Virus record (IMG/VR): IMGVR_UViG_3300014039_000016
Location: 136,829-150,460 of that record
Source: a virus
Strand: one strand, 5' to 3'
DNA: 13,632 nt
Translations under genes and position numbers: made by a program
The notes under the pieces: generated by a model
Told to the model about the DNA's origin: nothing
The model's database searches: none
The model's input: only the letters and a program-made list of their open reading frames with translations
Shown here: positions 1 through 13,375 of the stretch, piece after piece
Numbering within the stretch: position 1 is the stretch's first letter
How the letters are laid out: every line of letters starts with the position of its first letter

Positions 1-20
1 AGGAATACTTCAAATGCCAC

Positions 21-62
21 CATTGGGTTCACTACAGCGAACCGGCAAGAATCGAACTTGCC
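21..62 (-). other. tRNA-like fragment. A canonical T-arm-like hairpin (GGCAAG TTCGATT CTTGCC on the minus strand) followed by a second hairpin (GGTTC..GAACC). No complete cloverleaf could be folded.
   Basis: On the minus strand the 7-nt loop TTCGATT matches the tRNA T-loop consensus and is flanked by a 6-bp stem. The region is GC-rich relative to its surroundings, like the two tRNAs next to it. I could not find a D-arm, an anticodon arm or a matching 5' acceptor strand. It may be a tRNA remnant, an att-core-like fragment, or continue beyond the window edge. Confidence 0.25.
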
Positions 63-184
63 ACATTCTTCATTCATACCTCTACCGAACACTGAAATCT
101 CTTCGGATATGAACATTGACAGTTTTAACAAGGTAACTGACAACTGACTGTTCGGTTTTGTTTACCCAGTTCCGCGACTGGGAG

Positions 185-255
185 CTCCTCCCCTGGGAAT
201 CGGACCCAGATTCTTCGCTTAACAGGCGAGCATCCTACCTTTGAATGAGAGAGGA
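185..255 (-). tRNA. tRNA-Asn, anticodon GTT, 71 nt, no encoded CCA
   Basis: The manual fold on the minus strand works. Acceptor TCCTCTC pairs with GGGAGGA (6 Watson-Crick pairs plus 1 GU). D-arm is ATTC/AAAGGTA/GGAT. Anticodon arm is CTCGC/CTGTTAA/GCGAA with anticodon GTT and one mismatch at the 27-43 pair. Variable loop is 4 nt. T-arm is CTGGG/TCCGATT/CCCAG. Discriminator is G, as expected for Asn. The T-loop has C rather than U at position 55, which is unusual. The island is GC-rich and sits immediately downstream of promoter 283-311. Confidence 0.6.
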
Positions 256-282
256 AAAATATTTTTTTTATCTTATATAAAT

Positions 283-311
283 ATTATAACATAAATTTTT
301 ATAAAAATCAA
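283..311 (-). promoter_or_regulatory. sigma-A-type promoter, family A. -35 TTGATT, 17-nt spacer, extended -10 TGtTATAAT. Drives tRNA-Asn.
   Basis: Minus strand reads TTGATTTTTATAAAAATTTATGTTATAAT, with an exact 17-nt spacer. The sequence is nearly identical to the other family members. Confidence 0.7.
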
Positions 312-329
312 ATTACTGTTATACGACCA

Positions 330-470
330 TAAGTAATTTGGTAGTTTTAACTAGATTTCGCTAGTAGGAGATTTTGTTCTCTTGGGTAAACCGCAGCCTT
401 AGTCGCTCTCCGTTAACCTCACCCTGCATACCTTCTTTTTTATAGAGGAGAAGCATGGGTAGTAACTTAC
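330..470 (-). ncRNA. Unassigned GC-rich element driven by promoter 490-518. Candidate structured RNA, possibly a non-canonical tRNA, or alternatively a 31-aa micro-ORF.
   Basis: The promoter points into this segment. Its GC content of about 50% stands out against a roughly 28% background, exactly as the two tRNA islands do. It contains local stems such as GGGTGAG/TTTACCC and GCAG/CTGC. No T-loop motif was found and no ORF above about 31 codons. Confidence 0.25.
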
Positions 471-489
471 CTCTTTTCTTTATATAAAT

Positions 490-518
490 ATTATATCATA
501 TTTTTTTATATTTTTCAA
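490..518 (-). promoter_or_regulatory. sigma-A-type promoter, family A. -35 TTGAAA, 17-nt spacer, -10 TGaTATAAT.
   Basis: Minus strand reads TTGAAAAATATAAAAAAATATGATATAAT. Confidence 0.65.
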
Positions 519-590
519 GTTTGTATTTTATATAAAAAATATTTTATAATACTTAAATCACTTTGTCCAAAAATTTTTAAAATTCTTAAA

Positions 591-664
591 TGGACCTTCT
601 GGGACTCGAACCCAGGACCATTCGCTTATGAGACGAGCGCTCTAACCAGCTGAGCTAAAGGACC
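591..664 (-). tRNA. tRNA with anticodon CAT (elongator Met or lysidine-type Ile2), 74 nt, no encoded CCA
   Basis: Minus strand reads GGTCCTT TA GCTC AGCTGGTTA GAGC G CTCGT CTCATAA GCGAA TGGTC CTGGG TTCGAGT CCCAG AAGGTCC A. The D-arm (TAGCTCAGCTGGTTAGAGC) and T-arm (TTCGAGT loop) are canonical. The anticodon loop is CTCATAA. G1-C72 are paired, so this is not an initiator. There is one T-T mismatch in the acceptor stem and one mismatch at the base of the anticodon stem. It is preceded by promoter 761-789 with a leader of about 85 nt. Confidence 0.75.
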
Positions 665-760
665 AAAACACAAGACACAGTTATCCACAAATATCTATTT
701 TAACAGAATAGGCTTATGAGCTAAATAAGTTGCTGTCTGTATCTTATTTATTATATAAAT

Positions 761-789
761 ATTATAACATATTTTTTTATAAAAATCAA
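761..789 (-). promoter_or_regulatory. sigma-A-type promoter, family A. -35 TTGATT, 17-nt spacer, -10 TGtTATAAT. Drives tRNA-CAT.
   Basis: Minus strand reads TTGATTTTTATAAAAAAATATGTTATAAT. It abuts the stop codon of CDS 790-1446. Confidence 0.7.
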
Positions 790-1446
790 TTAAATATCAA
801 AGTAATTAATTGATGAAATACCCAAGAGTTCATAATTAATATATGAAACAGAAGTATTCCAATTATCGTAAACTCTTAAAAATCTTAAATCTTTCTGTTT
901 TCCTGTCTTATTATTCTTAACTTTAAAAGTCTCTACTCCTACTACCAAAACAGAGTGGTCTTTATAATAATTTCGTCCATCTGTAAGAAGATTTAAAATC
1001 ATTGGATATTGCATATTCTTAATATAGCTTTTAATCTTTTCAAAATTAAAACCTATAACTGGAAAACCTTTTAAAAATTTACTCTTAGCCTTATACTTTG
1101 TATTTGGTATAAACTTATCTAAAGACCTTTGTAATAACGCAGATATTACAAGAGGATTAGTACCTTTTAATTCCCCATTATAACTGCAATACTTTTCCGC
1201 AATCTCCTCGATTATTGAATAAAGTCCTTCAGTAGAAAGATGTTTTATCTGCGCAACTTCTTTAATTAAGGCTGTTGCACTAACAAGAGTACAATCATTC
1301 TTCTTACCATAGTCATTTTGGTCTAGTGCGGGAATTAGTTTTCTTCTGTTTAAATCTACTTTCTCTCGAGATATAACAGTATAACCAAGACTTGTTACAT
1401 ATCTCATTATATTATATTCATGCAAACGCATACCATTATACATCAA
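790..1446 (-). CDS. Hypothetical protein, 218 aa. Possible papain-like (C39/CHAP-like) cysteine-peptidase fold.
   Basis: ORF with an AGAGGTG ribosome-binding site 7 nt upstream of the ATG. It is the last gene of a three-gene operon. A Cys sits in NDCTLVSATAL and about 110 residues later a His sits in DHSVLVVG, an arrangement reminiscent of Cys-His papain-like peptidases. This is a weak, unverified motif call. Confidence 0.55.
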   Translation of the reverse strand: MMYNGMRLHEYNIMRYVTSLGYTVISREKVDLNRRKLIPALDQNDYGKKNDCTLVSATALIKEVAQIKHLSTEGLYSIIEEIAEKYCSYNGELKGTNPLVISALLQRSLDKFIPNTKYKAKSKFLKGFPVIGFNFEKIKSYIKNMQYPMILNLLTDGRNYYKDHSVLVVGVETFKVKNNKTGKQKDLRFLRVYDNWNTSVSYINYELLGISSINYFDI

Positions 1447-2080: not shown

Positions 2081-2113
2081 ATCTTTTTATCTCCTTATCT
2101 TTATTACATATAT

Positions 2114-2142
2114 ATTATATCATAAAATTTTATAAAAATCAA
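2114..2142 (-). promoter_or_regulatory. sigma-A-type promoter, family B. -35 TTGATT, 17-nt spacer, -10 TGaTATAAT.
   Basis: Minus strand reads TTGATTTTTATAAAATTTTATGATATAAT, followed by the conserved leader ATATATGTAATAAAGATAAGGAGA. Confidence 0.7.
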
Positions 2143-3135
2143 TTATAAATATGAACGCGTTGACTTCGGATGATGTTTGATTTTACAATTGCCGCAAAGC
2201 ATATATACATGATTCAATCCCTCTATCCAATATCTATCATCGCCCGCCTTAAAGATACGACCACAATAGTAACATTCTGTTACATCTTCCATTTTTAACG
2301 GCTTCGGAACATATGAATCACCTCTATAATTGTTTGGATTAAATTTTGGATATTCCTTTGGGATATACTCATAAGTCTTATGTCTACGAAGCTTCTGATT
2401 ATCCTTTAACATAGTCTTAACTCTTTCAATAGAGTCTGACAAGAAGTTTAAATTAATCCTTTCCATATCCATATGTTCATCAAAGTACCCAACAGAAAGA
2501 TTAACTGCGGCAATGCCCCACACTGGAGCTATTGTACTTATATCTGAAAAAGTTCCTGTCTCAGTTTCCCAACCAAATGAATTTATATATTCCTCAAATA
2601 ATTTATTATCACAGCCATAGAAAACGCAATCCTTCTCTCCTCTTCTATCTAACTGAATAAGATAATCACAATCTTTATTTGGTTCTGGATAATCTTCAAC
2701 AAATGCAGATGCCCCACTTCCGCCATATTCTTCATCATGTGTAAAAATAATAACTGCGGGTAAGAGACCTGCCTGCAAGATGCTAATGATACTATAAACG
2801 CCCGCCCTGTCATCTGCACCCAGTCCGCAAGTTCCTATAATTGTTGACTTATCTTTATCATAAAACATACTTTCTCTTGTTGGTGGTAACTCAAAGACAG
2901 TATCTAAATGTGCTAATAATCCAATATGACTTTTCTTAGGATTGCTTGTCTTAGCATATATATAATTCTCTGTTTCCACTACTTTATACTTATATCCTTT
3001 TAAAAGAACAACAAGTAAATCATGTAGTTCGTACTCCTTTAAACAAAGCAAATCCACAAAAGTTCTCAAATCATCTTTAGCTTCTTTTATTTTTATATAT
3101 TCCTTATATGCCCATTCTAATCTATTCTTTGTCAT
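2143..3135 (-). CDS. Clan MH (M20/M28/M42-like) zinc metallopeptidase/deacylase-like protein with a C-terminal CxxC...CxxC zinc ribbon, 330 aa
   Basis: Motifs appear in the order expected for co-catalytic zinc peptidases: AHLDTV (His-x-Asp metal ligand), GADDRAG (bridging Asp), HDEEYGG (Glu-Glu), then later acidic and His residues. The H-to-D-to-EE spacings of about 33 and 33 residues match M20-type enzymes. The C-terminus carries CYYCGR...CGNCK. The start overlaps the stop of the upstream gene by 14 nt. Confidence 0.6.
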   Translation of the reverse strand: MTKNRLEWAYKEYIKIKEAKDDLRTFVDLLCLKEYELHDLLVVLLKGYKYKVVETENYIYAKTSNPKKSHIGLLAHLDTVFELPPTRESMFYDKDKSTIIGTCGLGADDRAGVYSIISILQAGLLPAVIIFTHDEEYGGSGASAFVEDYPEPNKDCDYLIQLDRRGEKDCVFYGCDNKLFEEYINSFGWETETGTFSDISTIAPVWGIAAVNLSVGYFDEHMDMERINLNFLSDSIERVKTMLKDNQKLRRHKTYEYIPKEYPKFNPNNYRGDSYVPKPLKMEDVTECYYCGRIFKAGDDRYWIEGLNHVYMLCGNCKIKHHPKSTRSYL

Positions 3136-8680: not shown

Positions 8681-8713
8681 ATTTATTCACCTCTTTCTCT
8701 TTTCTATATAAAT

Positions 8714-8742
8714 ATTATATCATATTTTTTTATAAAAATAAA
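8714..8742 (-). promoter_or_regulatory. sigma-A-type promoter, family A. -35 TTTATT from the terminator U-tract, 17-nt spacer, -10 TGaTATAAT.
   Basis: Minus strand reads TTTATTTTTATAAAAAAATATGATATAAT. Confidence 0.6.
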
Positions 8743-9324: not shown

Positions 9325-9498
9325 TTAATTTCCAACATAACCTAAACTAAAGCCCATTATAAACATTAATGAAGCTACTGCTAAACCAGTTGAGATTTTA
9401 TATACAATTTCATTTGTTGTTACACAACTTATGGTATAACAAATTAATAACATAATGATACTAATTATTATACCTATACCTAACGCCGCACTCTCCAT
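9325..9498 (-). CDS. Small hydrophobic membrane peptide, 57 aa. Not in the ORF track.
   Basis: ATG preceded by a GGGAGGT ribosome-binding site. Sequence is MESAALGIGIIISIIMLLICYTISCVTTNEIVYKISTGLAVASLMFIMGFSLGYVGN. Confidence 0.4.
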   Translation of the reverse strand: MESAALGIGIIISIIMLLICYTISCVTTNEIVYKISTGLAVASLMFIMGFSLGYVGN

Positions 9499-9521
9499 GT
9501 ATTTCTACAACCTCCCATAAA

Positions 9522-10226
9522 TTATAAATATTCATTCCAGCCTGAAAAGTCAAGAATAATAGGGTCGCCATTTTCTCTGAAACCAATATTACCATTATGT
9601 AAATCTTCAACTACATTAGGAAATTCACTTTCTAAGAAGTCAATAAGTTTATCAACCATAGCCTTTCCATATCTTTCAATAGCAGCAGCAACCCATGAAG
9701 AATCTGCAAAACAATAATATTTTGAATCTGAATTAACAAAATTTAATGTTTCATCTTCTGAGACAGGACAATATTCATAGAAGTCTAATACTCTTTCCTG
9801 TTTGATAACAGTACCAGACTCACATTCTCCCATAATCTCTGTTTTTGGGAAAAAGATATCTAAACCATTCTCTTTTGCAGCTTCATAAACCTCATATTCT
9901 GTTAAACAATAGTCCCAACCTCGGTCCTCAGAATTGTCTGCGCCTCTAAATCTTGTAAAATAATCGTGGTCTACTGATTCATCATAATCCCACTTACCAG
10001 AATAAGGAACTTTGAGAACAGAGCTGCAGCCGGAAACAACAGCAACAGCCTTAGTTGCACCACGATATGCGCCGCCTGCAATCTTAGCATCTTTTAAAGC
10101 TTCTGAAATTAAAATTGTATTTTCTTCATCATCTTCATCATCGTCCCAGCCAAATTTCTCAGGAACTTTCTTTACAATTTCATTAAACACTTTTGTTAAT
10201 TTATCTTCTAATAATAATGTTGCCAT
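9522..10226 (-). CDS. Hypothetical protein, 234 aa, with an acidic N-terminal region
   Basis: ORF with an AAGAGGT ribosome-binding site. First gene after promoter 10262-10290. Confidence 0.65.
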   Translation of the reverse strand: MATLLLEDKLTKVFNEIVKKVPEKFGWDDDEDDEENTILISEALKDAKIAGGAYRGATKAVAVVSGCSSVLKVPYSGKWDYDESVDHDYFTRFRGADNSEDRGWDYCLTEYEVYEAAKENGLDIFFPKTEIMGECESGTVIKQERVLDFYEYCPVSEDETLNFVNSDSKYYCFADSSWVAAAIERYGKAMVDKLIDFLESEFPNVVEDLHNGNIGFRENGDPIILDFSGWNEYL

Positions 10227-10261
10227 ATTTATATACCTCTTTTCCTTTTCTTTATATAAAT

Positions 10262-10290
10262 ATTATAACATAATTTTTTACAAAAATAAA
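10262..10290 (-). promoter_or_regulatory. sigma-A-type promoter, family A. -35 TTTATT, 17-nt spacer, -10 TGtTATAAT.
   Basis: Minus strand reads TTTATTTTTGTAAAAAATTATGTTATAAT. Confidence 0.6.
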
Positions 10291-11833: not shown

Positions 11834-12037
11834 GTGACATTAGAAGAATTAGCAGAAGAATTGGGTGTGAAACCTAATTATTTAAGAAAAAGATTTCAAG
11901 ATGTTAAAAAGAATAGAGAAAAGATAGGTATAATTATTGAAAAAGTAGGAAGAGCGGCTTCCGCGGAATATGGTATAAAAACATGGTATGATAGTGAAAT
12001 TAGATATGAGCATCTTGACCCAGATGATTTTGAATAA
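11834..12037 (+). CDS. Small HTH DNA-binding protein, 67 aa, GTG start
   Basis: An AAGGAGGG ribosome-binding site lies 8 nt upstream of the GTG. It has a helix-turn-helix-like segment LEELAEELGVKPNYLRKRF. It is paralogous to the N-terminus of the 260-aa protein. Confidence 0.6.
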   Translation: MTLEELAEELGVKPNYLRKRFQDVKKNREKIGIIIEKVGRAASAEYGIKTWYDSEIRYEHLDPDDFE

Positions 12038-12051
12038 AAAGGAGAAAATAA

Positions 12052-12294
12052 ATGAGTAACAAAAGAACAGTAAAGGAGATATTAACTCCTAATGAATATA
12101 TGGCATATGAAGCAATTTTAAAGAAATTGGTTCAAGGAGAACAAACTTGTGTAAATGTTTCACAGTTTGCAGATGAAATACACCTTTCCCGCACAAGTAT
12201 TAGTAGTATGTTAAAGAAGTTAGATTTGATTGGTGTTTTTGAAGTTAAAAGTGCGGGAATGAGAGGAACTTATATCAAGTTTTTACCTAATTAA
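12052..12294 (+). CDS. Winged-HTH-type small regulator, 80 aa
   Basis: An AAAGGAGA ribosome-binding site lies 8 nt upstream. It has an HTH-like segment VSQFADEIHLSRTSISSMLKKLDLIGV. Confidence 0.6.
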   Translation: MSNKRTVKEILTPNEYMAYEAILKKLVQGEQTCVNVSQFADEIHLSRTSISSMLKKLDLIGVFEVKSAGMRGTYIKFLPN

Positions 12295-12307
12295 AGAAAA
12301 TATTACT

Positions 12308-12400
12308 TTGGATTTTCAAATGAGAATGAGAATGAGAGGATTAATAAGATTGGAGCGAAGCGGAAATCTTTTAATCCCGAATTCTCATTTGAAAATCCAA
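12308..12400. repeat. About 93-nt near-perfect hairpin. The outer inverted repeat is 20 bp and perfect. The inner inverted repeat is 14 bp with one mismatch. The loop is 13 nt. One arm carries a (TGAGAA)3 tandem bulge.
   Basis: TTGGATTTTCAAATGAGAAT at 12308-12327 is the exact reverse complement of 12381-12400. The inner pair is GGATTAATAAGATT against AATCTTTTAATCC. Confidence 0.6.
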
Positions 12401-12408
12401 GACTTAGA

Positions 12409-12440
12409 GATGCGAACTTGTTCGCATCGACTTTATATAA
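12409..12440 (+). terminator. Rho-independent terminator for the rightward HTH operon
   Basis: 8-bp stem GATGCGAA/TTCGCATC with a CTTG tetraloop, followed by GACTTTATATAA. Confidence 0.5.
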
Positions 12441-12504
12441 AGAGTATTGAGTTTTTAAATTATTTATATCTAGGAAGTTAAAAGTTCAATACTCTTTATA
12501 TAAA
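12432..12504. repeat. 19-bp perfect inverted repeat with a 35-nt spacer. Candidate operator or origin element.
   Basis: TTTATATAAAGAGTATTGA at 12432-12450 is the reverse complement of 12486-12504. Confidence 0.55.
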
Positions 12505-12592
12505 AAATGGAAAAAGTGTCACCAATTTTTAACTTTCAGAAGAATAATCATTTAAAATTGTGACATTTTTATATAAAGGAGAGTAACATATA

Positions 12593-13375
12593 ATGAATAT
12601 AAAAGAAGTAAGTGAAGCTTTAGGAATTGCGGAATCTACATTAAAAAATAATTATAGAAGAACTGCGGAAAGTTTATTAAAGAAAGGTATTATTTTAAAT
12701 AAAGAAGGAAGGGGCATTTCCGCAGAATATACAATAGAATATGATATGAGTTTTAAAGATAATAGAGCTTTAACTATATTTGATGAAAAGAAAGAAATAT
12801 ATTTACAAGATGATATGTTAAAGATGATAGATTGGAATCTCTTGATATTAGTAGGAGTTTGTTTAACGCCTTTGTTAACTTTTAGAGGAAGTTATAAAGA
12901 TTTTTTAAATTATGTTGGAGTATTACCATCTGCCGCGAATATTAATAAGTTAAAGGAAGTATTAGTTGAAATGGATGCTGATTATATTGGTTATTATCCT
13001 GATAAAACAGATGAACAATATTTTACCGCGTCTTTATATAGGAGTGTTGAGAAGAAATATAAGGTTTCAATTATTAAGTTGCGGAAATGTAAAGAAATTC
13101 AAGAAAAATATCATGGAAGAAGCTTCATTCCGCTATTGAAAACTTGGTTAGCTACTGAAGAAGCAGTAAAGAATCAACCTTATACTATTGATGATTTGAT
13201 TGAATTGACAGGATTATCTAAGAGTACTATTGTTAAAGCTAATAGGCAGTTAAGAGATGAAAATGTTTATAGGTCAGAGAAAGATTATATTCCGGAGATG
13301 AAAATATGCCGAGGGGTAAATACTGATATCAATGGATTTTTTGATGAAATCCCAACAGATTTACCTAGAAAATGA
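12593..13375 (+). CDS. 260-aa protein with N-terminal and C-terminal HTH-like segments. Putative regulator or replication initiator.
   Basis: An AAAGGAGAG ribosome-binding site lies 10 nt upstream. Its first 50 residues are paralogous to the 67-aa HTH protein, including the shared pattern LG..L....GII..K.GR..SAEY.I. The C-terminus carries LIELTGLSKSTIVKANRQL. It is flanked by palindromes upstream and iterons downstream. Confidence 0.65.
   Translation: MNIKEVSEALGIAESTLKNNYRRTAESLLKKGIILNKEGRGISAEYTIEYDMSFKDNRALTIFDEKKEIYLQDDMLKMIDWNLLILVGVCLTPLLTFRGSYKDFLNYVGVLPSAANINKLKEVLVEMDADYIGYYPDKTDEQYFTASLYRSVEKKYKVSIIKLRKCKEIQEKYHGRSFIPLLKTWLATEEAVKNQPYTIDDLIELTGLSKSTIVKANRQLRDENVYRSEKDYIPEMKICRGVNTDINGFFDEIPTDLPRK

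Follow-up and report, generated by a model that had tools for sequence, protein, structure and literature searches.

A predicted tRNA-like domain within a conserved ORF-free region at the promoter-proximal end of a phage tRNA array

The window analysed here is a stretch of 13,632 nucleotides excised from a phage contig of ~151 kb, in which a tRNA array holds 20 tRNAs. The beginning of the window is best explained, with a probability of roughly 65%, as the promoter-proximal end of that array in a lytic-type, low-GC phage of ~150 kb, from which separate transcripts would arise, one of them including a 626-nt RNA with a tRNA-like domain. The core of this domain, which would lie close to the 5′ end of that RNA, would be formed by two hairpins at positions 21-62. 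The window is the reverse complement of locus L001 up to L001 position 11740 and is identical to it, and all features under study lie on the minus strand of the window. A preliminary description of this DNA had reported GC-rich islands embedded in AT-rich DNA, which is evident in 40-base windows: GC content peaks at 45-60% at positions 1-255, 360-460 and 580-680, against 5-17% in the spacers between the islands. The observation as a whole is confirmed at the same coordinates, and the interpretation placed upon it is partly supported. From right to left across the window, the features are as follows.

Positions 751 to 789, minus strand: promoter copy 1, an exact family match, with TTGATT, a 17-base spacer, TGtTATAAT and the conserved downstream sequence ATTTATATAA.
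Positions 590 to 665, minus strand: CAT tRNA (ARAGORN and Rfam RF00005, 63.4 bits).
Positions 480 to 518, minus strand: promoter copy 2, with TTGAAA, a 17-base spacer and TGaTATAAT, ahead of island B.
Positions 312 to 483, minus strand: island B, a putative separately promoted transcript of ~170 nt, its start placed from the position of the −10 element.
Positions 361 to 456, minus strand: a 31-codon ORF in island B, encoding MLLLYKKEGMQGEVNGERLRLRFTQENKISY.
Positions 273 to 311, minus strand: promoter copy 3, with TTGATT, a 17-base spacer and TGtTATAAT, ahead of tRNA-Asn.
Positions 184 to 255, minus strand: tRNA-Asn (GTT) (ARAGORN and Rfam RF00005, 45.8 bits).
Positions 1 to 183, minus strand: the first 183 nt of the 626-nt region (L001 11558-12183), the rest of which lies beyond the window edge.
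Positions 72 to 183, minus strand: three predicted 5′ hairpins of the 626-nt region (RNAalifold; stems mostly invariant, support thermodynamic only).
Positions 12 to 68, minus strand: TLD-1, a predicted tRNA-like three-way junction (MFE structure in isolation and RNAalifold consensus).
Positions 63 to 68 with 12 to 17, minus strand: closing helix of TLD-1 (predicted pairing).
Positions 44 to 62, minus strand: T arm of TLD-1, GGCAAG-TTCGATT-CTTGCC, with a 6-bp stem and the canonical 7-nt T loop UUCGAUU.
Positions 26 to 43, minus strand: capped acceptor-like helix of TLD-1, GGUUCGC-UGUA-GUGAACC, with 7 bp and a tetraloop, and no spacer to the T arm.
Positions 18 to 25, minus strand: GG strand of TLD-1, the 8-nt strand CAAUGGUG ahead of the closing helix, with no D stem-loop.

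The promoters belong to a family defined by a 39-base sigma-70-type element. This element occurs six times in the window, always on the minus strand and in three cases before protein genes (0 copies in 200 shuffles), and ten times in L001, always co-oriented with the genes. The three copies at 283-311, 490-518 and 761-789, which had been described as family-A promoters, are recovered as exact matches by the promoter scan (L001 11430-11458, 11223-11251 and 10952-10980, respectively). Promoters were judged by a TTGACA-like −35 element, a 17-base spacer and TGnTATAAT, pointing towards a gene. Each of the three contains TTGATT or TTGAAA, a 17-base spacer and TG-n-TATAAT, and matches 10-11 of the 12 hexamer positions with the TG present, as would be expected of sigma-70-type extended −10 promoters. 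Copy 2 is unchanged in four of five related genomes, and a single change is found in L017 (TGaTATAAT to TGtTATAAT). Copy 1 is predicted to drive the CAT tRNA through a leader of ~85 nt. Copy 3 would drive tRNA-Asn and everything down to a cREC gene: the stretch from L001 11468 to 12746 is free of family promoters, the next copy lying at L001 12746, 1.3 kb downstream, and there is no terminator-like site on its strand before L001 20116. The proposal that the islands are individually promoted holds for the CAT tRNA, tRNA-Asn and the island at 330-470, and fails for 21-62, which lacks a promoter of this family and probably shares a transcript with tRNA-Asn.

The two canonical tRNAs, Asn-GTT and a CAT tRNA, are both called by ARAGORN and both exceed the Rfam gathering score (29 bits for RF00005), with boundaries at 184 or 185 to 255 and at 590 or 591 to 664 or 665, respectively. 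The C55 noted in tRNA-Asn is real (T loop UCCGAUU). It is present in two independent assemblies, L001 and L002, which are 100% identical, and is private to this genome, U55 being found in the tRNA-Asn of all relatives. The 27-43 pair is indeed non-standard in both tRNAs, being C27-A43 in each in the Rfam alignment; pair 28-42 of tRNA-Asn takes three different states across relatives, and the CAT tRNA also contains a U3-U70 mismatch. Assignment of the CAT tRNA to either Met or Ile2 was reasonable, and Ile2 is the likelier by C4-G69 and C5-G68, so that this gene probably encodes a lysidine-type tRNA-Ile2. The array contains other CAT tRNAs, namely a separate initiator-type tRNA (CGCGGGG...) and a third, and ATA codons are used at 28.5 per 1000 codons.

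The 626-nt region spans the interval from tRNA-Asn to the 5′ end of tRNA-Thr, upstream of the cREC gene, and is 92-94% identical in four other genomes. It contains no conserved ORF because scattered 1-2 base indels break the frame, and no gene is called within it in any assembly. It has a GC content of 40%, against a window mean of 31%, and an MFE z of −2.68, and the whole 626 nt are conserved as strongly as the adjoining tRNAs. The hairpins at 21-62 had been regarded as a small separate island; they are a module near the 5′ end of this conserved region, which continues past the window edge. One of the hairpins at 72-183 is CCAGU-...-ACUGG, directly after the 3′ end of tRNA-Asn. Beyond two tRNA-like modules, the predicted helices are mostly invariant or show only one-sided changes among the five genomes, and the long-range helices proposed by RNAalifold, in which broken substitutions are as many as compatible ones, are not relied on here. 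The second tRNA-like module is a degenerate cloverleaf at L001 11827-11899, which shows compensatory changes and separates a 269-nt 5′ part from a 284-nt 3′ part. An ARAGORN call requires lowering the threshold to 85%, the base at position 33 is A or G, and the “anticodon” differs between genomes; the cloverleaf does not look like a functional tRNA. The region also contains two complementary GC-rich hexaloops, UUGCCG and CGGCAA, both invariant, which are only a hint of oligomerisation.

The TLD-1 module alone has an MFE z of −2.29, and its helices are kept across five related genomes through compensatory changes. Paired combinations make up 92.6% of cells, a share that drops to 26-55% if the partners are shifted against each other. 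In the ungapped alignment, three pairs have changed on both sides, and two further compensatory pairs appear once the bulged U of L008 and L035 is placed; shuffle control (a) is only moderately exceeded, with 18-19 of 500 shuffles reaching the observed values. The T stem, which reads GGCAAG/CUUGCC, AGUGAG/CUUGCU, GGUAAG/CUUACC or GGUAAG/CUUGCC in the five genomes, is paired in all of them. The acceptor-like helix has a second allele in L008 and L035, UGUCCGC-CGUA-GU(U)GGACA, in which the changes from G-C to U-A and from U-A to C-G are both compensatory; for this allele the isolated module favours another MFE fold. The T loop UUCGAUU and UGGUGGCAUU are invariant, and 37% of the TLD-1 columns vary, against ~12% around the module. 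With its 6-bp T stem and lack of a D stem, TLD-1 is thus no faithful copy of a tRNA. Both hairpins exist as originally described (T arm at 44-62, GGTTCGC-TGTA-GTGAACC at 26-43). The accompanying statement that 1-120 and 330-470 are not cloverleaves also stands, as neither has a tRNA match in Rfam at E≤10. With its threshold lowered to 60%, ARAGORN makes no call in 330-470, and the calls that overlap 1-120 are spurious and low in score.

Island B is the most conserved stretch of the region, with 6.4% variable columns, and has a GC content of 39%, against 5-17% in the spacers around it. It contains the CU-rich motifs CUUCUCCUCU and AUCUCCUAC. No Rfam family match to island B was accepted at E≤10. 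The earlier label of structured RNA for 330-470 is unjustified, because folding shows no excess energy (MFE z = −0.38) and the related genomes show no covariation (0 compensatory pairs). As for the suggestion of novel small RNAs, it is possible for 330-470, with nothing positive in its favour; 21-62 is no small island and belongs to the 626-nt region. A preQ1-I riboswitch (RF00522) was considered and rejected, with a score of 12.7 bits (E = 3) where 39 bits are needed, a loop of 21 nt rather than ~11, and the P2-forming CUUC at the wrong end of the loop. Antisense regulation of a gene in the window was likewise rejected, the complement of the CU-rich motif matching island B alone. Island B is complementary at 19 of 21 positions to the spacer between two tRNA-Glu genes, a purine tract. 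It may be transcribed from its own promoter as a non-coding RNA whose sequence is constrained, possibly an sRNA that acts by base pairing.

It is conceivable, though unlikely, that island B is functionless in itself: it could be the leader belonging to an additional, upstream promoter of the tRNA-Asn operon, or a spacer carried along by hitch-hiking. There is no terminator between island B and the tRNA-Asn promoter, so the island B promoter would read through into the operon, and the absence of structure, covariation and a family match fits this reading. The AT-rich spacers flanking island B are equally invariant, and its low divergence could therefore reflect recent recombination rather than selection. 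However, its GC content exceeds that of those spacers, its substitution density is the lowest in the region, and a perfect promoter precedes it, with one of equal strength 207 bp downstream of that. A more doubtful proposal is that island B is a tiny protein gene for the 31-aa peptide MLLLYKKEGMQGEVNGERLRLRFTQENKISY. The ORF is intact in all five genomes, a 1-base insertion in L035 turning the ATG into an in-frame TTG; three of its six substitutions are synonymous (among them CTG to CTA to TTA, which all encode Leu) and the remaining three conservative; AGAGG lies upstream, and the island lacks an RNA-structure signal. Against these points, the codon score lies 5.5 SD under that of the phage's own genes, taken in 31-codon windows, and does not exceed the score of the other frames, GC3 is 0.53 against 0.24, and the rare codons CGA, CGG, AGG and CTG are used. 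The Shine-Dalgarno-like AGAGG is ~13 nt from the ATG, three synonymous changes out of six are not significant, the ORF has never been called as a gene, and a search of 15 billion predicted proteins does not yield the peptide.

Homologues of the region were found in only five metagenomic genomes, at 92-100% identity. No relatives, close or distant, are present in GenBank phages, where the sole match is the CAT tRNA. Exact and degenerate search patterns drawn from TLD-1, island B, the 3′ domain and tRNA-Asn identified only two already known relatives in IMG/VR and gave no match in JGI metagenomes and GTDB genomes. Three extra matches to the gapped T-loop/GG pattern were discarded, as they are either coincidental and in coding DNA or part of a tRNA fragment. 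Searches of both islands against 36 loci with blastn and nhmmer identified no distant homologue. A covariance model of TLD-1 (R1), run over 396 kb, gives high scores in the five relatives only; matches of 21.6 bits proved to be an odd, unrelated tRNA-Pro locus.

The 626-nt region was compared with ROOL, GOLLD, YrlA and tmRNA and matches none of these families. In the Rfam test, the gathering score was applied first, followed by E≤10 with permissive filters on 661 nt. In kind, the region resembles ROOL and GOLLD in being large, ORF-free, conserved and located beside phage tRNAs. ROOL is a large non-coding phage RNA (~580-630 nt, 581 on average) found in or beside tRNA islands and probably co-transcribed with the tRNAs. 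In distant phages whose tRNA arrays share a C39-like peptidase gene with the present one, ROOL lies 1-3 kb downstream of that gene, and the 626-nt region, of similar size, occupies the same niche at the same distance from it. GOLLD is likewise a large phage or prophage RNA near tRNAs, and in some of its members the linker that joins the 5′ domain to the 3′ domain includes a tRNA (PMC12286853), a position comparable to that of the degenerate cloverleaf in the middle of the 626-nt region. The UUGCCG and CGGCAA hexaloops could also kiss like the bridges of ROOL and GOLLD. Even so, it is improbable that the region is a highly diverged true homologue of either RNA. Neither ROOL (RF03087, gathering score 99.1 bits) nor GOLLD (RF01998) gives a match at the gathering score or at E≤10, whereas the ROOLs of the distant phages, which serve as a positive control, score 288-302 bits (L024, L027, L028, L029 and L033). 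The region has no similarity to these ROOLs by blastn or nhmmer, and short ROOL-like words occur in a different order on inspection against the ROOL consensus. Its predicted topology also differs, with no ROOL-type 5′-3′ closing helix and with two tRNA-like modules inside, and compared with GOLLD it is ~200 nt shorter and its embedded cloverleaf is not functional-looking. The L021 clade contains no weak ROOL at the gap in the corresponding position.

A still smaller probability, the lowest we assign, falls to the reading of TLD-1 and its flanks as a YrlA-type Y RNA that tethers Ro60/Rsr, as in bacterial RNA-repair or RNA-decay modules. Like YrlA, TLD-1 would be a circularly permuted tRNA-like domain, in which a T stem-loop is followed by a capped acceptor-like stem-loop, with covariation, and a helix encloses both. 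The order of elements (stem strand, T arm, capped acceptor stem-loop, D region, stem strand) is similar, and YrlA is the sole Rfam family that aligns across the whole of TLD-1. YrlA RNAs occur in phages and beside RNA-repair genes (PMC4201824), and an RNA-repair-type cREC gene lies downstream of TLD-1. However, the match to YrlA (RF02553) is 15.0 bits (E = 4.1) against a gathering score of 69, TLD-1 lacks a D stem-loop, and it sits inside a 626-nt region rather than forming an RNA of ~110 nt. A regular-expression search of L001 11558-12183 found no GNCGAAN0-1G Ro-binding motif (PMC4201824), and no TROVE/Ro60 Pfam match exists among the called genes of the 20-kb locus or among 10 proteins scanned. 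It is also highly improbable that the non-tRNA islands are functionless junk, whether decaying tRNA pseudogenes, scars of tandem-tRNA fusion or an att core copied from the 3′ end of a host tRNA. Phage tRNA arrays are mosaic, and this one includes homing-endonuclease-type genes (PDDEXK_5 and GIY-YIG) and a module-sized indel, a 170-nt element found in relatives and missing from the present genome. False YrlA-like matches are known to arise where a T arm runs into the beginning of another tRNA (PMC4201824), and R1 also catches tRNA-tRNA junctions at low score. The base changes argue otherwise. The strand after the T arm pairs with bases only 4 nt further on, a pairing kept through two double substitutions, and the T stem is kept through two more, with invariant loops; as the changes are compensatory, the earlier idea that 21-62 is a decaying tRNA remnant is unlikely. 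The suggestion of an att core duplicated from a host tRNA fails because GGYAAGTTCGATTCTTRCCGGTTCG, a 25-mer that spans the T arm and the strand after it, occurs in none of 185,579 bacterial and archaeal genomes, and because the complementary 5′ strand lies only 4 bases on. It fails also because the stems differ between phages and yet remain paired, while an att core must match the host. No integrase-family Pfam match is present among the called genes of the 20-kb locus, and all 626 nt are conserved like the neighbouring tRNAs.

The TLD-1 module also resembles the tRNA-like part of tmRNA, in which a T arm and acceptor helix are combined with a D region that is single-stranded and stemless, and helix 2a closes the domain instead of an anticodon stem. 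When the tmRNA gene is in two pieces, the 5′ acceptor strand comes after the T arm and the 3′ acceptor strand. ARAGORN at its default threshold finds no tmRNA; its calls at ≤70% of threshold are spurious and borrow the end of tRNA-Thr, and the Rfam tmRNA alignment covers bare T arms only, at 7-9 bits. The TLD-1 helix differs in having U2-G71 and G3-C70 and no G3-U70, and TLD-1 has no encoded CCA, plausible tag reading frame or intervening segment, its cap being 4 nt. A precedent for stable non-tRNA RNAs within a phage tRNA cluster exists in T4, where species 1 and species 2 (rnaC and rnaD), of ~120-140 nt, are excised from tRNA precursors by the tRNA-processing machinery. To our knowledge, their function has not been established. 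The 626-nt region is longer than these RNAs and contains a capped acceptor helix, and no sequence relation is expected.

The gene downstream of the 626-nt region and tRNA-Thr matches PF20274 (cREC_REC, E = 3e-21), a domain predicted by its authors to process 2′,3′-cyclic phosphate RNA ends and associated by them with RNA ligases in phages (PMC7824862). In the explanation we favour, one strong sigma-70-type extended −10 promoter would have been copied along the array, firing leftward on the minus strand and serving protein operons as well. One copy would produce the CAT tRNA (probably tRNA-Ile2), another the ~170-nt island B, and the third a long precursor comprising tRNA-Asn, the 626-nt non-coding RNA, tRNA-Thr and then the mRNA for the cyclic-phosphate-processing cREC protein. 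We infer that cuts by RNase P and RNase Z at the flanking tRNAs would free the 626-nt RNA. In its tRNA-like domain, the T arm would stack on the capped 7-bp acceptor-like helix, with the GG strand replacing the D loop and the closing helix replacing the anticodon stem. TLD-1 would thereby mimic the elbow-plus-acceptor shape that tRNA-handling enzymes recognise, and could be bound by tRNA-processing or tRNA-targeting proteins. RNase P might also cut the UGUA loop between window positions 33 and 32, just as YrlA of M. smegmatis is cut in its acceptor stem, likewise capped and 7 bp long (PMC4201824). The likeliest role for the 626-nt RNA would be that of a phage RNA working alongside the tRNA-supply and tRNA-repair functions of the array, possibly as a tRNA decoy, a scaffold or a GOLLD/ROOL-like large RNA.

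A more speculative proposal, which we hold tentatively and with the odds clearly against it, is that the 626-nt region represents a third class of GOLLD/ROOL-like RNAs, with two fast-evolving tRNA-mimic domains, processed by the tRNA machinery and acting as a decoy or by self-assembly. In such an RNA, the mimic stems would change at two to three times the rate of the remainder and still preserve their shape. As a decoy, it could be a sponge for host tRNA-targeting defence nucleases, alongside the cREC repair gene; as an assembly, it could consist of RNAs joined through the UUGCCG and CGGCAA loops.

The GOLLD and ROOL RNAs are abundant large structured RNAs of phage tRNA islands and form RNA-only cages. 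We know of no established function for either. The 626-nt region is unrelated to them in sequence but has a comparable position and a related neighbourhood, which suggests that this niche may repeatedly select such RNAs, and the region could thus provide a second angle on what GOLLD/ROOL-like RNAs do. Gene callers, ARAGORN and Rfam leave more than 1 kb of this array blank. The tRNA-mimic modules, together with a predicted operon shared with tRNAs and an RNA-end-repair-type gene, point to phage-host conflict over tRNA cleavage, and a quick, structure-preserving turnover of the mimic stems is the pattern that would be expected in an arms race.

The two hairpins downstream of tRNA-Asn (window 21–62) are covered by a predicted tRNA-like three-way junction, here called TLD-1, which belongs to a larger region of 626 nt between the last base of tRNA-Asn and the first base of tRNA-Thr. 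The window is contained, with identical sequence, in the 151,093-bp metagenomic contig L001 (L001 position = 11741 − window position). Downstream of the window's end, ARAGORN finds 20 tRNAs in 9 kb of L001, of which 19 are confirmed by Rfam, and window position 1 therefore cuts through a tRNA array. Four further variants, 92–95% identical, were compared (L008 and L009 from IMG/VR, L017 and L035); no relatives beyond these, closer or more distant, were found in GenBank phages, IMG/VR, JGI metagenomes or GTDB genomes. A GC scan of the window recovered the GC-rich islands at the array start, and all features of the finding lie on the minus strand of the window:

Window 12–68 (−): TLD-1
Window 184–255 (−): tRNA-Asn(GTT), called by ARAGORN; Rfam tRNA 45.8 bits
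Window 312–483 (−): island B, a separately promoted GC-rich stretch
Window 590–665 (−): CAT tRNA, called by ARAGORN; Rfam tRNA 63.4 bits
Window 2104–2142, 8704–8742, 10252–10290 (−): 39-base promoter copies before protein genes
L001 11558–12183: 626-nt region
L001 11760–11775, 11800–11823: hexaloop hairpins, 20–80 nt beyond the window's end
L001 11827–11899: second tRNA-like element, within the 626-nt region

Read from window 68 to 12, the TLD-1 RNA is GAAUGU, GGCAAG-UUCGAUU-CUUGCC, GGUUCGC-UGUA-GUGAACC, CAAUGGUG, GCAUUU, with four parts:

T arm: 6 bp, canonical T loop
Capped helix: 7 bp with a tetraloop cap, abutting the T arm directly
GG-containing strand: 8 nt
Closing helix: 6 bp, closing the three-way junction

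Folded alone, the module adopts this structure at minimum energy (z = −2.29), and RNAalifold gives it as the consensus. Among the five genomes 21 of 57 columns are variable, versus about 12% in the flanking RNA; the helices are nevertheless kept. The T stem occurs as GGCAAG/CUUGCC, AGUGAG/CUUGCU, GGUAAG/CUUACC and GGUAAG/CUUGCC, and the capped helix as two alleles, GGUUCGY/GUGAACY versus UGUCCGC/GU(U)GGAYA, which differ by G-C to U-A and U-A to C-G. The sole changes in the closing helix are G-U to G-C and A-U to G-U, while the T loop and UGGUGGCAUU are invariant. Without gaps in the alignment, pairing holds in 92.6% of cells, versus 26–55% with slid partners, and three pairs are changed on both sides; the observed values are reached by 18–19 of 500 column shuffles. 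The substitutions are consistent with selection on the shape of the RNA and not with a decaying pseudogene; a tRNA remnant, one of the readings suggested for the island, is unlikely. The preliminary description had also considered an att-core-like duplicate of a host tRNA 3′ end. This reading is not supported either, because an att core has to match host sequence, whereas TLD-1 varies among relatives, its stems still paired; a TLD-1 25-mer is found in 0 of 185,579 genomes.

No genes were called in the 626-nt region in any assembly, and scattered 1–2 base indels would break any frame. The region has a GC content of 40% (genome, 31%) and excess folding energy (z = −2.68). Its second tRNA-like element has a 7-bp acceptor stem (UGCUUGU/ACAAGUA versus UGCCUGU/AUGGGUA), a T arm that occurs as two alleles, and a stem-loop with varying “anticodon” positions (GAUAAGG, GGGAAGG, GACAAGG). 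ARAGORN calls it only at 85% of threshold, and no Rfam tRNA match was found at E≤10. Several local hairpins in the 5′ and 3′ parts of the region show compatible changes, a few of them compensatory; the long-range helices of the RNAalifold model are not supported, with broken substitutions as frequent as compatible ones. The apical hexaloops of two hairpins, UUGCCG and CGGCAA, are invariant, GC-rich and fully complementary to each other; the complementarity extends to 8 nt with the closing pair, which in the second hairpin covaries (G-C, A-U, G-U). The two loops may kiss, either intramolecularly or between copies of the RNA.

The three promoters named in the preliminary description coincide exactly with promoter-scan matches (TTGATT or TTGAAA, a 17-base spacer, TGnTATAAT). 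The 39-base promoter element is present in six copies in the window and ten in L001, all co-oriented with genes, and in none in shuffled sequence. Half of the window copies (3/6) precede protein genes, and the element appears to be a strong promoter that the phage uses generally and does not reserve for RNA genes. From the absence of a family promoter between L001 11468 and 12746, and of a terminator-like site on this strand before L001 20116 in our scan, we infer a single precursor that would run from tRNA-Asn through the 626-nt RNA and tRNA-Thr into the mRNA of the next gene. This gene, the first protein gene after tRNA-Thr (L001 12284–12574, 96 aa), encodes a cREC_REC protein (PF20274, E = 3e-21) and is probably in the same transcript. 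Members of the cREC_REC family are predicted to process 2′,3′-cyclic phosphate ends, and in phages the family has a link to RNA ligases (PMC7824862).

Rfam 15 gave nothing at gathering score in the 626-nt region. The only family spanning TLD-1 at E≤10 was YrlA (15 bits versus a gathering score of 69), in which the order of stem, T arm, capped acceptor stem-loop, D arm and stem is that of TLD-1. In M. smegmatis, YrlA has a 7-bp capped stem; RNase P cleaves this RNA, and CCA is added to it (PMC4201824). However, TLD-1 has no D stem-loop, the GNCGAAN0-1G motif was not found in the 626-nt region, and no TROVE gene is visible within the 20-kb locus. The tRNA-like domain of tmRNA shares with TLD-1 the stemless D region and the closing helix, but TLD-1 has no G3-U70, no tag frame and, at the default threshold, no ARAGORN tmRNA call. 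At ~9830–9960 in L028, L030 and L033, a tRNA-Pro(TGG)-like gene with a degenerate T arm is immediately preceded by a stand-alone T arm, CGCTAG-TTCGATT-CTAGCG; this site is a 21.6-bit match of the TLD-1 model, and in L027 the tRNA-Pro at the corresponding position is normal.

The gene that neighbours the array upstream (window 790–1446, −) is homologous to C39-like peptidases, its distant relatives having PF13529, and members of its family turn up repeatedly in tRNA arrays of many large phages. Distant phages with this gene in their tRNA arrays carry a bona fide ROOL RNA 1–3 kb downstream (288–302 bits):

L024 11565–12169: ROOL RNA
L027 11592–12185: ROOL RNA
L028 11914–12512: ROOL RNA
L029 11968–12559: ROOL RNA
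L033 13034–13627: ROOL RNA

In these phages ROOL is found inside the tRNA array, just after a CTA-anticodon (amber-suppressor-type) tRNA, and L028 and L029 also have a RAGATH-33 RNA (~9450–9578). ROOL and GOLLD, both large RNAs of phages that usually lie close to tRNAs, use kissing loops and A-minor contacts for their assembly, and the GOLLD linker sometimes contains a tRNA (PMC5737381, PMC12286853). The 626-nt RNA resembles them in niche, size class and layout, yet shares no sequence with them and has no covariance-model match. We file it as an RNA that would work like the ROOL/GOLLD kind while being a member of neither family.

Both tRNAs of the preliminary description, Asn-GTT and CAT, are called by ARAGORN and score above the Rfam tRNA gathering score of 29. 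The proposed 27-43 mismatch is present in each as a non-standard pair; the CAT tRNA also has U3-U70. C55 of tRNA-Asn is likewise real, the T loop having U54-C55 in two independent assemblies, and is private to the window's genome, all relatives having U55. The anticodon-stem pair 28-42 of tRNA-Asn is U-A in the window, A-U in three relatives and C-G in the fourth, that is, three states among genomes otherwise 92–95% identical; the D arm is also altered in L035. AAT, read by tRNA-Asn(GUU), is used 49.8 times per 1000 codons. The L001 array has three CAT tRNAs, one of which begins CGCGGGG and has the C1-A72 mismatch that is an initiator hallmark. The window CAT tRNA carries C4-G69 and C5-G68, two acceptor-stem pairs that serve E. 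coli lysidine synthetase as determinants. Because of these pairs, a best database match to an annotated tRNA-Ile, and a frequency of ATA in the window's genes of 28.5 per 1000 codons, with a separate initiator-type CAT tRNA in the array, we assign it to tRNA-Ile2 with moderate confidence.

Island B has a perfect promoter of its own, runs ~170 nt to the next promoter and is the region's most conserved stretch (6.4% variable columns). As proposed, window 330–470 is not a full cloverleaf: ARAGORN makes no call even at 60% of its threshold. The label “structured” is not borne out, since there is no excess folding energy (z = −0.38) and no compensatory pair among the five genomes, and two substitutions break predicted pairs. 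There is no Rfam match; the best family, preQ1-I, reaches 12.7 bits where the gathering score is 39, with the wrong loop geometry, and the resemblance is therefore probably chance. At the 5′ end (window 443–483, −; L001 11258–11311), an AGAGG...CCUCU stem is followed by AUAAAAAA and GAAGG, and this preQ1-I-like outline sits upstream of tRNA-Asn, a queuosine-receiving tRNA. A 31-codon ORF is intact in 5/5 genomes, with 3/6 substitutions synonymous. By codon usage the ORF scores 5.5 SD lower than the phage's own genes do, and no higher than the other frames; its GC3 is 0.53, versus 0.24 in phage genes. The Shine-Dalgarno-like AGAGG is ~13 nt from the ATG, and the peptide is not among 15 billion predicted proteins. 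Island B may be a sequence-constrained sRNA, a tiny atypical gene or a functionless leader.

Non-tRNA transcription units seem to be common in the L001 array. GC-enriched stretches without tRNA or ORF are found at L001 12785–12950, 13415–13520, 13650–13860 and 13898–14037, three of them directly behind 39-base promoter copies. L001 14456–14677, called by neither ARAGORN nor Rfam, has a T arm (GTCGGGTTCAAATCCCGAC) and a strand TACAACT pairable with GGTTGTA ~200 nt upstream, and looks like a tRNA-like gene with a ~140-nt insert. Three relatives have a ~170-nt extra element (L008 6848–7020, L009 7089–7260, L017 10848–11030) that separates the CAT tRNA from the promoter of island B. It has a TTGACT...TATAAG promoter-like site of its own and, in a hairpin, a CGGCAA loop as in the 626-nt region; it is missing from the window's genome (between 590 and 518) and partly from L035. 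Elsewhere in the window are a second gene with a weak M28/M20 peptidase match (2143–3135, −) and a transcription switch at ~11.4–11.8 kb, with a rightward block of small HTH-type genes (11834–13375, +).

Because the evidence base is five near-identical metagenomic genomes and sequence only, all functional statements are inferences. The tRNAs and promoters of the window are ordinary for a large phage. What appears to be new is a putative, unannotated tRNA-mimic junction, TLD-1, fast-evolving yet structure-preserving, inside a 626-nt RNA; the predicted 626-nt RNA itself, of no known family, in a GOLLD/ROOL-type niche; and the apparently promoter-driven island B.
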